Of a stretch of DNA of 64,000 nt, positions 46,984 through 55,181 are shown one piece after another. This stretch comes from an uncultured delta proteobacterium (GTDB lineage Bacteria > Myxococcota > Myxococcia > Myxococcales > Anaeromyxobacteraceae), in assembly GCA_963828255.1 (NCBI GenBank), contig CAWHDZ010000017.1, positions 1-64,000 on the forward strand, in the 5' to 3' direction. Position 1 is the stretch's first letter; every line of letters begins with the position of its first letter. A program made the position numbers and the translations under genes. Below the pieces are notes generated by a model, which was not told where the DNA came from, made no database searches, and saw only the letters and a list, made by a program, of their open reading frames with translations.

Positions 46984-47426
46984 CCCGACGAGACCGGCGC
47001 GATGCGCAACGTGACCTGGCAGCCGGAGGACGTGCTGCGACGGGCGCTCAAGCGCGCCGGGATCGTCACCGGGTGCAAGCACAAGCGCCGGCGGAAGGGC
47101 TGCGGCCACGAGGAAGCCCACGCCGACGCCAACCCTCGGCGCTGCCCTCGATGCGATTTCCTGCTCTGGCCGAAGGCTCAGGTGCAGGCGACCCGCTTCC
47201 ACGACCTCCGTCACACCTGCGCGAGCGTGCTCCTCATGCTCGGGGCGAACCTCGTGTCGATGCAGAAGGTGCTCGGCCACTCCGACCCGAAGATCACGGA
47301 GCGGCGCTACGGCCACCTGCTGCTTGCCAAAAGGAGAGGCCGGAACCCCTTCGGTTTCCCGAGAGATTCCAGCCTCGTTTGTGGCGGGGAGTACGGGACT
47401 CGAACCCGTGGCCTCCGGCGTGACAG
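46984..47426 (+). repeat. 443-bp direct repeat, copy 1: integrase 3' part + terminator + tRNA-Asp 3' half
   Basis: Matches 54707..55149 (offset 7723); I saw 3 substitutions. Confidence 0.95.
47382..47426 (-). other. att core: duplicated 3' 45 nt of tRNA-Asp
   Basis: Identical to 55105..55149, covering the anticodon arm to CCA. Confidence 0.9.
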
Positions 47427-47572
47427 CCGCTGAACCAGGGCTGGCGGGGATGGGTCAATCGTTGCAACCCCCTGCAACTACTCGGTTCGGGAGCCGCTCG
47501 GACTCCAGCGCTTCGCCAGGTTTGGGAGCGTTTTCCCGTCCGCGAGTTACACCTGGGTTACAGTCACCGATC

Positions 47573-47791
47573 GTGAAATCCGTCGCCTCGGAGCGGCTCC
47601 TGTCGGTTCGCCAGGTGGCTGCGCGGCTCGGGGTCAGCACCTCGACCATCTACGGCCTGTGCCAGAAGGGAAGGCTCCCTCACGTTCGCGTCTCGAACGC
47701 CATCCGCGTGGCACCCGAGGCCCTTGAGGACCTGGTGGGAGGTGGGGCGCGCCCCGGGGGGACCTACAGCGCCGGGCCCCGTCCTCGGTAA
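47573..47791 (+). CDS. HTH_17 (excisionase-like) domain, probably the attP-side C-terminus of the integrase
   Basis: LLSVRQVAARLGVSTSTIYGL...LPHVRVSNAIRV, in the open frame 47324..47791 that crosses the att core. Confidence 0.7.
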   Translation: MKSVASERLLSVRQVAARLGVSTSTIYGLCQKGRLPHVRVSNAIRVAPEALEDLVGGGARPGGTYSAGPRPR

Positions 47792-48051
47792 GCGCTCCAG
47801 ACTGCGACGACGTAGACACGATTGGCCTCCACCAGAAAGTACAGGTGGTAGCTCGTCCTCTGGAGCAGGAGTCGACGGATGCCCGGCTTCGGCGCGTACC
47901 GCAGGCCCAGTCCGGGCGCGCCTTCAAGCGCGATCAGTGCCTGGTCGAGCTCGTTCACGAAGAGGTCGGGGGCCGCCGGGCGGTTCTCGCGCCACCAGGC
48001 ATCGGCGCGTTCGACCTCGGCCCGCGCTTCGCCGGAAAGCTCGACTTTCAC
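47764..48051 (-). CDS. RelE/ParE family toxin
   Basis: 95 aa; A..E...A..W, P..G, IRRLLL..YHLYF and VVAVW pattern. Confidence 0.8.
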   Translation of the reverse strand: MKVELSGEARAEVERADAWWRENRPAAPDLFVNELDQALIALEGAPGLGLRYAPKPGIRRLLLQRTSYHLYFLVEANRVYVVAVWSAYRGRGPAL

Positions 48052-48302
48052 CGACCGGATGCTCTCGCGCGCAGTTCAGCCATCACCTGGCGGGCATCGG
48101 TCGTGCGTCCCGCGTGAACGTCGGCGAGCCCCCGGTCGATGGAAGCGTGAAGCCGCTCGCGCTCCTCGGCGTCGAGGTAGTCCCCGCCGCTGGTGAGCAC
48201 CTCGTCGAGGGGGACAAGCTCGACGACCTCGCCGTTGGGCAGATCGGTGGGCTCGTCCAGCAGCAGCCGGCCACCTCGAACGTGTGCCTTGAGCGCCCTC
48301 AT
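48048..48302 (-). CDS. Cognate antitoxin
   Basis: MRALKAHVRGGRLLLDEPTDLP...SIDRGLADVHAGR; GTGA overlap with the toxin. Confidence 0.75.
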   Translation of the reverse strand: MRALKAHVRGGRLLLDEPTDLPNGEVVELVPLDEVLTSGGDYLDAEERERLHASIDRGLADVHAGRTTDARQVMAELRARASGR

Positions 48303-48590
48303 GGTGCTGATCATCTTAACGCTTCCCGGAGTCGTCCGCAGCCTCGACGGACGGGCCCGAGTGGCGGAACCAGGATCTCCCGGTACCGGATCCGTTCCCA
48401 CCTCATGTTCGAAACGAAGGAGGTTCCGTACCGTCTGCTGGGGCTGATCTCCCGCGACCGGCAAAGGGCTTTCCACGGGCGGGTCTGGTAGCTGGTGGAA
48501 CAGGCCGTTCGCGGCGAGCTTCGGCCTTCTGATTTCTACTTCTACCTCGACTGCTCCCGCCCCGAGGAGCCAAAGCCTAGGTCCTTACCT

Positions 48591-53534: not shown

Positions 53535-53546
53535 GCGGAGCGAACC

Positions 53547-53891
53547 ATGGACGAGACGAATCGCGACCAGGCGACGTTCGGATGGGCTGGCCAGGCCCCC
53601 GGGAAGGGCCCTCGGAGGCCCGCGCGCGCGTCGCCCGGCGTCGCCCCGGGTCTTCCGGCCTCCAGGGCCGCCAGCGAGCCGCCAAGTCAGTCCGCGCTGC
53701 CACCCGACAACGAGCTCTGGGACGTCCACGCGGCCGCGCGCTTCCTGAAGCGCAGCGTCAGCTGGGTCTACCACAAGGCCGAGGACGGGACGCTTCCGGT
53801 CCGGCGGCTCGGCGGCTGGGGCATCCGGTTTATACCCGGTGAGCTCCGCGCCTGGGTCGAGTCGGGCGGCGCGCGTCGGTCCGGTCGGTAG
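53547..53891 (+). CDS. Excisionase-like HTH (AlpA/HTH_17)
   Basis: LWDVHAAARFLKRSVSWVY...LPVRRLG..IRF; directly upstream of int. Confidence 0.8.
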   Translation: MDETNRDQATFGWAGQAPGKGPRRPARASPGVAPGLPASRAASEPPSQSALPPDNELWDVHAAARFLKRSVSWVYHKAEDGTLPVRRLGGWGIRFIPGELRAWVESGGARRSGR

Positions 53892-53926
53892 AATCGAGGA
53901 CGGACGGAGCACGCGGAGGTTCGAGA

Positions 53927-55162
53927 ATGGGCTGCGCATATCAGCGAGGACGCGTCTGGTGGATCAAGTTCCAGGATGCGAACGGCGAGCCCGCGTACGA
54001 CCCGACGCCGGCGCGGACGAAGGCCGAGGCCAAGGCGCTCCTCCGCGAGCTCGAGGAGCGGGTGTTCCGCCAGCGGAAGGGGCTCGAGCCCCGCACCCTC
54101 AATCCGGAGGGCTGGACAGTCGCGGACCTCATGAAGTGGTGGCTCGAGAACTACAGTTCCCAGTCGGAGTCGCACGACCGGAACGTGGGCTCGGTGAAGG
54201 CCAACATCCTCGCCACGCCGCTCGCGTCGAAGAAGCTGGAGCACGTCGGTCCGGGAGACATCGAGGACCTCCTCAACGCGAAGGGGCGGGAGGCAGCACC
54301 GGCCACCGTGAACCACGTCCGGGCCTTCCTCGTCCGCGCCTTCAACAAGGCCAGGAAGGCCCAGAAGTGGCTTGGCTCGAATCCGGCCGAGGAGACCGAT
54401 ACGCGCCGCGTGCCCGAGCTGATCGCGAGCATCCTGGTCCCGGAAGAAGTGCTCCCGTTTTTCGCGGCCCTCGCCCTCGAGCAGCGACCGGTCTTCGCAA
54501 CGGCCATCCTGGCCGGGTTGCGGAAGGGGGAACTGTGCGGGCTCCAGAAGACGGACGTCGACCTCGGCCGTCGGCTGCTCGCGGTGCGGCGCTCCTACGG
54601 CCGCCCCTCGACGAAGAACATGAAGCAGCGAGTCGTCCGGGTGCCCGAGGAGCTCGTCCCGTTCCTGGAGCAGGCCCTCGTGTCGTTCCCGGGTCCCTGG
54701 CTCTTTCCCGACGAGGCCGGCGCGATGCGCAACGTGACCTGGCAGCCGGAGGACGTGCTGCGACGGGCGCTCAAGCGCGCCGGGATCGTCACCGGGTGCA
54801 AGCACAAGCGCCGGCGGAAGGGCTGCGGCCACGAGGAAGCCCACGCCGACGCCAACCCTCGGCGCTGCCCTCGATGCGATTTCCTGCTCTGGCCGGAGGC
54901 TCAGGTGCAGGCGACCCGCTTCCACGACCTCCGTCACACCTGCGCGAGCGTGCTCCTCATGCTCGGGGCGAACCTCGTGTCGATGCAGAAGGTGCTCGGC
55001 CACTCCGACCCGAAGATCACGGAGCGGCGCTACGGCCACCTGCTGCTTGCCAAAAGGAGAGGCCGGAACCCCTTCGGTTTCCCGAGAGATTCCGGCCTCG
55101 TTTGTGGCGGGGAGTACGGGACTCGAACCCGTGGCCTCCGGCGTGACAGGCCGGCGTTATAA
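53927..55162 (+). CDS. int: Tyrosine integrase with a Cys-rich insertion; 3' end runs antisense through tRNA-Asp
   Basis: GLRKGEL, RFHDLRHT, LGHS and RRYGHL motifs. Confidence 0.93.
   Translation: MGCAYQRGRVWWIKFQDANGEPAYDPTPARTKAEAKALLRELEERVFRQRKGLEPRTLNPEGWTVADLMKWWLENYSSQSESHDRNVGSVKANILATPLASKKLEHVGPGDIEDLLNAKGREAAPATVNHVRAFLVRAFNKARKAQKWLGSNPAEETDTRRVPELIASILVPEEVLPFFAALALEQRPVFATAILAGLRKGELCGLQKTDVDLGRRLLAVRRSYGRPSTKNMKQRVVRVPEELVPFLEQALVSFPGPWLFPDEAGAMRNVTWQPEDVLRRALKRAGIVTGCKHKRRRKGCGHEEAHADANPRRCPRCDFLLWPEAQVQATRFHDLRHTCASVLLMLGANLVSMQKVLGHSDPKITERRYGHLLLAKRRGRNPFGFPRDSGLVCGGEYGTRTRGLRRDRPAL
54707..55149 (+). repeat. 443-bp direct repeat, copy 2
   Basis: Matches 46984..47426. Confidence 0.95.
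55052..55099 (-). terminator. Terminator after tRNA-Asp, supplied by the element
   Basis: GAGGCCGGAA...TTCCGGCCTC stem followed by TCCTTTT on the minus strand. Confidence 0.7.
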
Positions 55163-55181
55163 CCGACTTAACTAACTCCCC
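55105..55181 (-). tRNA. trnD: tRNA-Asp (GTC)
   Basis: GGGGAGTTAG...CTGTCAC...GGTTCGAGTCC...CCA cloverleaf. Confidence 0.97.

Follow-up and report, generated by a model that had tools for sequence, protein, structure and literature searches.

Where an integrase gene runs into the tRNA gene at which its element is inserted, the question arises whether recombination changes the integrase itself. This question was raised by a stretch of 64,000 nucleotides (nt) from an uncultured delta proteobacterium of the Anaeromyxobacteraceae (contig CAWHDZ010000017.1, positions 1 to 64,000; here called the window), in which a tyrosine integrase gene (int) converges on a tRNA-Asp gene. According to the original prediction, the attachment (att) core lies within int, and excision would join the integrase (Int) to a helix-turn-helix (HTH) domain, so that recombination itself acts as a directionality switch. 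Our analysis indicates that the locus is most probably a non-phage integrative island of 7,723 bp that occupies the 3' half of tRNA-Asp, with an integrase of the Mx9/Mx8 myxobacterial group, and that it was likely immobilised by a 131-nt deletion. The island is a decayed non-phage member of the known Mx8/Mx9 kind in which attP lies inside int, and the Int-HTH frame was found intact in its relatives.

The island in tRNA-Asp and the frame of its integrase

A copy of the att core had been predicted 7,723 bp to the left of tRNA-Asp, and an exact 45-nt repeat with this spacing was found (47382-47426 and 55105-55149; Table 1). The repeat had been taken for a bare core; it is in fact a direct repeat of 443 bp, in which 46984-47426 matches 54707-55149 with three mismatches (left positions 46993, 47173, and 47371). 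Its first ~398 nt hold the last ~132 int codons, and its final 45 nt are the core. Because the repeat spans int codons as well as the core, the DNA to the left of the attL core is an int remnant and not naive chromosome, and the left junction is therefore the leftover of a tandem or earlier copy. The remnant is 94% identical to Int residues 255-408, and the open reading frame (ORF) that contains it (46912-47433) matched Phage_integrase with an E value of 1.5e-9. As in other islands that target tRNA genes, a repeat of the tRNA 3' part bounds the element and int converges on an intact tRNA-Asp. A circle junction could be distinguished from the chromosomal left junction solely by the A/G difference at 47371/55094.

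The int ORF ends 58 nt inside the tRNA gene, and its translation ends ...ERRYGHLLLAKRRGRNPFGFPRDSGLVCGGEYGTRTRGLRRDRPAL*. It encodes a tyrosine-recombinase catalytic domain, in which the motifs of the series R...HxxR...H...Y are visible (AGLRKGE, HDLRH, LGHSD, and ERRY). A frame other than the int frame, starting from 55047, reads LPKGEAGTPSVSREIPASFVAGSTGLEPVASGVTGRRYNRLN and ends in GRRYNRLN at the tRNA, and on the far side the same frame runs into an HTH_17 domain within the ORF 47324-47791 (Pfam E value, 6e-11; TIGR01764, 37.8 bits). Both readings agree with the original prediction. Its identification of this core-crossing frame with the int frame of the window had to be abandoned, because a 131-nt deletion puts int in another frame.

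The deletion was located with BLAST and MAFFT by comparison with orthologues of 94-95% identity from three genomes of the same genus (G001, G003, and G011). A net 131 nt are missing after YGHLL at 55046/55049 and likewise at 47323/47326. In each copy, the gap directly follows the catalytic tyrosine and lies between ...CTGCTGC and CCAAAAGG. The orthologues, tRNA-Asp integrases of the kind whose alignment had been suggested, read YGHLLP-EFMSSEVNRLQFGLAVLAPSGGASQAFAGFGRPTVTPGLQSATPPKGEAGTPSVSREVPASCVAGSTGLEPVASGVTGRRYNRLN in one frame, from the tyrosine through the core to GRRYNRLN. The segment absent from the window is also present in more distant relatives, and the state of the window is therefore a derived deletion. 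It takes out 43 codons and shifts the frame, and a conserved PxFMxxEVxRLxFG segment is lost together with the repeat pair on the int side. Among the nine proteins of the 90%-identity cluster, six have 459 amino acids (aa) and two have 571 aa; the length of 411 aa occurs only in the window. In four metagenome runs from two studies, orthologue-type undeleted sequence was found at 47323/47326 in all four, either in loose ends or in the letters between the joint sides. The contigs from these runs derive from relatives; no run contained the stretch itself, the best share of words being 0.24.

In the window, the catalytic domain is thus out of frame with the frame in which the family crosses the core. 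Across the left junction, the int frame reaches a stop at 47433, with the end ...RRDSR*. Because int uses another frame here, the circle reconstructed in silico would encode an Int ending ...RDSR* and no Int-HTH fusion, and the predicted restoration of the fusion by excision fails for this element. The C-terminal exchange would amount to ...RDRPAL* against ...RDSR*. Because the deletion removes the conserved segment and shifts the frame, neither isoform of the family can be made here, and the sequence suggests that the island is likely immobile.

It is improbable that the island is still mobile, with the 411-aa Int active despite its shifted tail and the 443-bp repeat derived from a double tandem integration whose left copy was mostly lost. 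Such activity would fit the identical deletion in two copies that differ at only 3 of 443 positions, the catalytic motifs that remain visible, and the tandem or serial occupation of tRNA-Asp in G001, G003, and G006. However, a segment conserved in the family right after the tyrosine is deleted along with the int-side repeat pair, the 411-aa form is one of nine in its cluster, and unequal crossing-over or gene conversion between the repeats accounts equally well for the shared deletion. The presence of the deletion in both copies can be explained by unequal crossing-over and then deletion, by gene conversion, or by tandem integration of a deleted element that was still active.

In addition, the catalytic domain of the family carries a Cys-rich insertion of the pattern C-x4-C ... 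C-x2-C, which reads GYKHKCRRKGCGH...RRCPRCEF in the orthologues and resembles a zinc ribbon. At 54740-54840 of the window (Int residues ~272-305), the Cys pattern is shifted (GCKHKRRRKGCGH), one Cys being lost and another gained four residues earlier. The genome of the window also contains at least four more paralogues of the integrase family, with 34-45% identity (G000 contigs C30, C34, C3, and C7).

Table 1. Features of the island, its boundaries, and the adjacent tRNA genes (positions in the window)
Feature	Position	Strand	Evidence or remark
int 3' end remnant, left part of 443-bp repeat	46984-47381	+	Same 131-nt deletion, at 47323/47326
ORF in the predicted core-crossing frame, left end	47324-47791	+	Runs on into HTH_17 domain
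attL core	47382-47426	none	Identical to tRNA-Asp positions 33-77, which run from anticodon loop to CCA end
Linker from core to HTH	47427-47596	+	Open in the Int frame of the family
Excisionase-type winged-helix HTH (HTH_17) and ORF end	47597-47791	+	Detached C-terminal module of the episomal Int of the family
ParE-family toxin (cargo)	47764-48051	minus	PF05016, E 4.5e-6
Putative antitoxin upstream of parE	48048-48476	minus	Position, overlapping stop/start; no family match
AbiEi_4-domain protein	48591-49175	minus	PF13338, E 3.4e-15
Serine hydrolase, 707 aa, beta-lactamase fold	49277-51400	minus	PF00144, E 1e-53
Hypothetical protein, conserved with orthologous islands	52002-52343	+	Window 51443-55046 aligns to G001 and G003
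Replication-relaxation family protein	52356-53534	+	PF13814, E 3.8e-13
Small ORF just upstream of int, weak HTH_17	53547-53891	+	E 3.4e-5, below gathering score; phrog_66, E 7e-5
Tyrosine integrase, 411 aa	53927-55162	+	PF00589, E 6e-19; phrog_1, E 1.6e-49
Strong hairpin just 3' of tRNA-Asp	55059-55099 (41 nt)	minus	-35 kcal/mol, z -5.6; then UCCUUUUGG
tRNA-Asp(GTC)	55105-55181	minus	ARAGORN; its 3' 45 nt (55105-55149) are the attR core
tRNA-Val(TAC), chromosomal neighbour	55196-55267	minus	ARAGORN

The frame from integrase to HTH domain in related islands

Relatives of the window Int were fetched from related genomes at 47 places (46 distinct). At 41 of them, the catalytic-domain match was followed by a convergent tRNA gene no more than 500 nt from its end, and the adjacent tRNAs were Asp, Gly-CCC/GCC, Arg-CCG/ACG/TCG, Pro-GGG/CGG, and Val-GAC/CAC. 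Except at one place (L058), the int frame stopped inside or beyond the adjacent tRNA (40 of 41). An attL repeat of ~45 nt from the tRNA 3' half was present in 18 loci apart from the window; 22 loci had none, often owing to a contig end. When the window HTH was used as the tblastn query, 14 of the 18 attL loci showed an HTH homologue that begins 195-330 nt downstream of the first core-repeat position, and no match to this query was found in the other four (L058, L061, L081, and L082). The HTH stood in the phase of the Int frame through the core, without a stop, in all 14 loci, and in another frame in none. The original prediction had named homologues that never carry the HTH in frame as the finding that would speak against it, and the opposite was seen in these 14 loci. 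At the level of the family, the idea that excision would restore an Int-HTH fusion holds. The C-terminal exchange in the family comprises ~120-160 residues, including the HTH, against ~8 tRNA-encoded residues.

The linkers between core and HTH in the 14 loci are 149-284 nt long. The Int frame had no stop in any of them, whereas the two other frames contained stops in 24 of 28 cases. These loci cover eight tRNA/anticodon targets and about ten linker lengths, and the sole indel among close relatives is 3 nt. Substitutions between the window and G003 were distributed over the three codon positions as 3/2/12 in the HTH and as 10/13/10 in the linker. Because substitutions in the linker spread evenly over codon positions, its amino-acid sequence is free, while its openness and phase are kept.

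These data also bear on the alternative that the HTH beside attL is an ordinary stand-alone excisionase gene, with the open frame a by-product of high guanine-plus-cytosine content and the database fusions gene-calling artefacts. The lack of codon-position bias in the linker, its constraint as DNA through repeat sites, and its predicted disorder in the family would suit a separate gene, as would the presence, in most loci, of a GTG or TTG no more than ~10 codons away from the HTH. However, all 14 HTHs stand in the Int phase without a stop although the linkers differ in length, the two other frames mostly contain stops, and the one indel among close relatives, of 3 nt, keeps the frame. A Shine-Dalgarno-like motif before an in-frame ATG, GTG, or TTG ahead of the HTH was found in 1 of the 14 loci, and in 2 of the 14 no such codon occurred in the ~50 codons scanned upstream of the HTH. 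The deposited annotation of the Mx9 int gene, moreover, takes in the HTH. We therefore regard a stand-alone excisionase as unlikely. A scan for a sigma-70-like promoter upstream of the HTH found none.

Comparison with the relatives thus showed, at the level of predicted ORFs, that the int ORF of the family runs past the tyrosine through a repeat pair spaced by 11 bp, a tRNA-identical core, and a second copy of the repeats and then into HTH_17. In the window, the HTH matched PF12728 (HTH_17) over residues 92-137 of its ORF (nt 47597-47734) with 42.8-45.1 bits against a cut-off of 27, and the TIGR01764 'excisionase family' profile above its cut-off of 28.8 bits. The core-to-stop peptide of the window was modelled by AlphaFold2 with 14 homologues. 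Its first ~70 residues had a predicted local distance difference test (pLDDT) score around 50, and residues ~72-120 formed an H-H-E-E-H unit with pLDDT of 88-93. In a Foldseek search of the PDB, the best matches were BldC and the excisionase (Xis) of mycobacteriophage Pukovnik, and RdfS was also listed. The match to Pukovnik Xis had a root-mean-square deviation (rmsd) of 1.0 A, 38% identity, and a template modelling (TM) score of 0.77-0.79 by target length. The E values of this search were weak (4.5e-3 to 8e-3), as expected because the domain has only ~50 residues. The profile scores and the predicted winged-helix fold together assign the domain to the excisionase-family HTH proteins.

Contiguous Int-HTH ORFs were found as well. 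A natural junction on G003:C52 carries a 571-aa Int-HTH ORF with PF00589 and PF12728, and G003:C6 carries an Int-HTH ORF of the Gly-CCC type. Among the 99 database relatives of the tail region, five combined both domains, namely P0006 (581 aa), P0044 (563 aa), and the partial P0007, P0018, and P0052. The annotated Int of phage Mx9 (548 aa) likewise combines PF00589 with HTH_17 at residues 489-537 (E value, 3.5e-11), after a tRNA-like stretch. When episomal records were searched by tblastn with the post-catalytic tail, plasmids gave two Bacillus catalytic-domain matches only, and phages gave none at an E value of 1e-8. In IMG/VR, a scan for the core peptide pattern yielded 66 distant integrases, almost all of which matched at the catalytic end alone.

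Further observations were made at individual loci. Positions 1-96 of G003:C52 (L038) are identical to positions 1-96 of G003:C61 (L093) and represent the tail of a different integrase, of P0007 type. P0007 itself is a P0007-type Int joined in frame to the HTH of a window-type island. Where unlike elements stand side by side, chimeric Int-HTH ORFs therefore arise at their tandem junctions. The G001 island (L045, G001:C10 365100-385075; 13.8 kb) has an int remnant just outside the attL core that is only 81-87% identical to the Int query over the matched parts, and serial occupation of tRNA-Asp is therefore common. In G006 (L054, G006:C3), two attL-type repeats lie 5,995 and 13,546 bp from the tRNA, the outer and older one with a frameshifted HTH. 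In the more distant loci L081 and L082 (G000:C3 and G010:C266; tRNA-Pro CGG), the Int frame is open for ~120 codons past the attL core with no HTH match, and these loci may exchange another module as their tail.

Motif pairs, hairpin, and cargo

In 15 of the 18 loci, an element-specific direct motif of 10-22 nt stands both before and after the core, at about -77 to -93 and +116 to +140, and both sets lie inside the Int-HTH ORF. The longest matches consist of two 6-8-mers 11 bp apart, such as GAGTTACACCTGGGTTACAGTC, TTTGCTACGCCCTTGCTACG, and ATGTGGCACCCGTGTGGCACG. The case for these motifs rests on their consistent positions. In the window, the 17-nt motif GTTACACCTGGGTTACA occurs at 47546-47562 in the linker, with GTTACA twice, 11 bp apart. 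It matched once in the window against 0.01 matches expected; this is the HTH-side copy, the int-side copy being deleted, and in the orthologues the motif flanks the core on both sides. The motif pairs look like arm-type or Xis-type binding sites. A protein repeat (VTPGLQS/ATPLL) was also considered and was rejected, because these peptide-like stretches on both sides of the core track the element-specific DNA repeats that lie there.

The strong hairpin beside tRNA-Asp ends 5 nt before the 3' end of the tRNA gene, and the Int tail is encoded antisense to it. It was not called in a scan for consensus terminators. Several genomes of the genus without a window-type Int have other hairpins at the corresponding place. 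At two loci of the same genus, L091 (G013:C2) and L087 (G010:C97), an island-type hairpin and ~60 nt of Int-tail sequence stand by tRNA-Asp with no int within 1.5 kb. This state is either an ancestral terminator copied by islands or the scar of a lost island.

The island shares its right 3.6 kb with those of G001 and G003 but differs from them in cargo. The 707-aa hydrolase scored 57.7 bits, far below the class C beta-lactamase cut-off of 415. No virion or packaging gene was found among the nine island ORFs scanned, the sole 'tail' match being the beta-lactamase-fold domain of the hydrolase. The element, at 7.7 kb, is not a temperate phage, and its description as a non-phage element in the original prediction was confirmed. 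To the left of the int remnant lie, in order, a copy, truncated at its 5' end, of a hypothetical gene from a 147-aa family, a Y2-transposase/ISCR fragment, and a CFA-synthase gene. The fragment (45892-46410, minus strand), located between the CFA-synthase gene and the int remnant, is the C-terminal part of an IS91/ISCR-type Y2 transposase, which may have contributed to the rearrangement that truncated the older copy.

Known systems and the direction of recombination

The window Int was compared with characterised enzymes. The original prediction had called the locus Mx8-like, which is correct for the attP-inside-int kind; the nearer relative is Mx9, whose Int has an HTH_17 tail that Pfam did not find in the IntP of Mx8. 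The Mx9 Int (OQ709411 18795-20441; int region AY247757) was 33.8% identical over 63% of the window Int (E value, 1e-27), and in hhalign it matched the family profile from the catalytic domain through the HTH with a probability of 99.95%. Mx9 shares the Cys-rich insertion, which is also present in the Mx4 Int, as well as the tRNA-like stretch within the ORF followed by a C-terminal HTH_17. Both also use tRNA genes as integration targets, and we take the target of Mx9 to be tRNA-Gly. In contrast, Mx9 is a 53-kb phage and the island has 7.7 kb without virion genes, the Mx9 HTH follows ~15 residues after the tRNA-like stretch instead of a linker of ~55-95 residues with a repeat pair, and the window copy is frameshifted. 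Mx9 integration is reported in a review to follow a principle similar to that of Mx8 (PMC6070905).

According to the same review, attP of Mx8 lies inside int, integration gives Int a new 3' end and altered specificity, and the change does not inactivate the enzyme and acts as a switch (PMC6070905). The titles of the work of Magrini et al. point the same way. In the IntP of Mx8 (AF396866), the stretch ...AGVARSTGLEPV... (VARSTGLEPV) crosses a core resembling tRNA-Asp, antisense and in the same frame. Directly upstream of int, Mx8 carries a small excisionase gene with HTH_17 (uoi), and in the window the small ORF with weak HTH_17 occupies this place. Mx8 was, however, not among the tblastn matches at an E value of 1e-5, hhalign covered it only up to the core with a probability of 94%, and Pfam found no HTH_17 in its tail after the core at an E value of 0.01; the Mx4 Int has none either. 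The window Int is thus related in sequence to characterised phage enzymes, more closely to Mx9 and only with the stated probability to Mx8. In Mx8, integration reportedly replaces a C-terminal part of 112 residues by one of 13.

Other systems resemble the family in part. SSV1-type integrases of Sulfolobus fuselloviruses also have the att site inside int, and integration interrupts the gene (PMC5861418). These are archaeal enzymes with other active-site residues. Their split cuts the enzyme proper, whereas the window family loses no more than an accessory C-terminal module and keeps its catalytic domain (residues 1-372) whole on one side of the core; the element is thus not of the SSV1 type. 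In the integration-dependent immunity of mycobacteriophages, attP lies inside the repressor gene, and recombination swaps the C-terminus and thereby records the integrated or free state. It is the repressor that is affected there, through a swapped degradation tag, whereas the window family exchanges a DNA-binding domain of the recombinase. This form of immunity is mentioned in PMC4929511. Proteins of the Xis/BldC type (Pukovnik Xis, 4j2n; BldC, 6ama; RdfS, 8dgl) resemble the modelled tail with an rmsd of 1.0-1.3 A, TM scores of 0.77-0.87 by target length, and up to 38% identity. In contrast to the C-terminal module of a recombinase ORF in the family, they are free-standing small proteins.

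For intact members of the family, these comparisons suggest that recombination at the core would turn an Int-linker-HTH protein of ~570 aa, encoded by the episome, into an Int of ~459 aa with eight tRNA-encoded residues in the integrated state. After integration, Int would keep a short tail read antisense through the tRNA (...GRRYNRLN*), and the linker together with the HTH would be left, without evident start signals, at the opposite island end. Excision, or a second element integrating alongside, would rejoin Int and HTH. By analogy with IntP and IntX of Mx8, the full-length Int would be the integration-proficient enzyme, and the truncated Int together with the small HTH protein encoded upstream of int may form the excision set. 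The full-length form is taken as the integration enzyme because of the account of Mx8 in the review (PMC6070905) and the titles of Magrini et al. We infer that recombination itself may set the directionality.

Several points weigh against this interpretation. The roles of the isoforms in integration and excision are inferred from the titles and the review on Mx8. The Int-HTH ORFs other than that of Mx9 may stem from tandem arrays and not from circles; the G003 contigs break at the repeat, and no terminal overlap indicating circularity was found for G003:C6 or G003:C52. The Mx9 Int-HTH is not open to this reading, because it comes from the record of a phage genome. No coding signature is visible in the linker, and translation through it is argued from frame and stop statistics over 14 loci that are not all independent (close pairs are, for example, L038/L045, L047/L048, and L067/L077). 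In the window, both int copies share the deletion, and the deleted element possibly still moved. Finally, the assembly is metagenome-derived, with 6.6% genome contamination in 40 contigs, and the metagenome runs yielded contigs of relatives only; it is nevertheless very unlikely that the 443-bp repeat or the deletion is an assembly artefact, as the copies differ at three positions, their flanks are different and coherent, the left breakpoint joins the 5'-truncated gene of the 147-aa family, and similar int remnants occur beside attL in G001.

As a broader and distinctly tentative proposal, many myxobacterial islands and phages at genes of at least five tRNA species may have one Xis-like domain that recombination attaches to or detaches from Int. 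Attached, on the episome, it would turn the enzyme into an integrase; stranded at attL, it would be silent or a lone excisionase. The recombinase would then carry the physical state of its element in its own sequence, and this state would decide in which direction the following reaction runs.

The principle has precedents in Mx8 and Mx9. That recombination "covalently modifies" Int was proposed during the work on Mx8 in the 1990s, and the int-attP cassettes of Mx8 and Mx9 are standard integration vectors for myxobacteria. In the literature searched, which did not include the primary Mx8 and Mx9 papers, no description of an excisionase domain swapped by recombination in an integrase was found. 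Within the same scope, we found no printed account that the exchanged module of the Mx9 branch is an excisionase-type HTH or that this layout is a rule in many small non-phage islands at genes of at least five tRNA species. The window itself illustrates only the decay of such an element. For annotation, the results carry the warning that 'integrase' and 'excisionase' ORFs at opposite ends of an island can be halves of one gene. Altogether, the comparison suggests that a large integrase family of Anaeromyxobacter-like bacteria follows the attP-inside-int principle as a rule, both in phages and in small non-phage islands, and that what the Mx9 branch exchanges is a DNA-binding domain of the excisionase type with intragenic paired direct repeats flanking it. 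This would offer a concrete and testable route by which directionality may be set in such elements.

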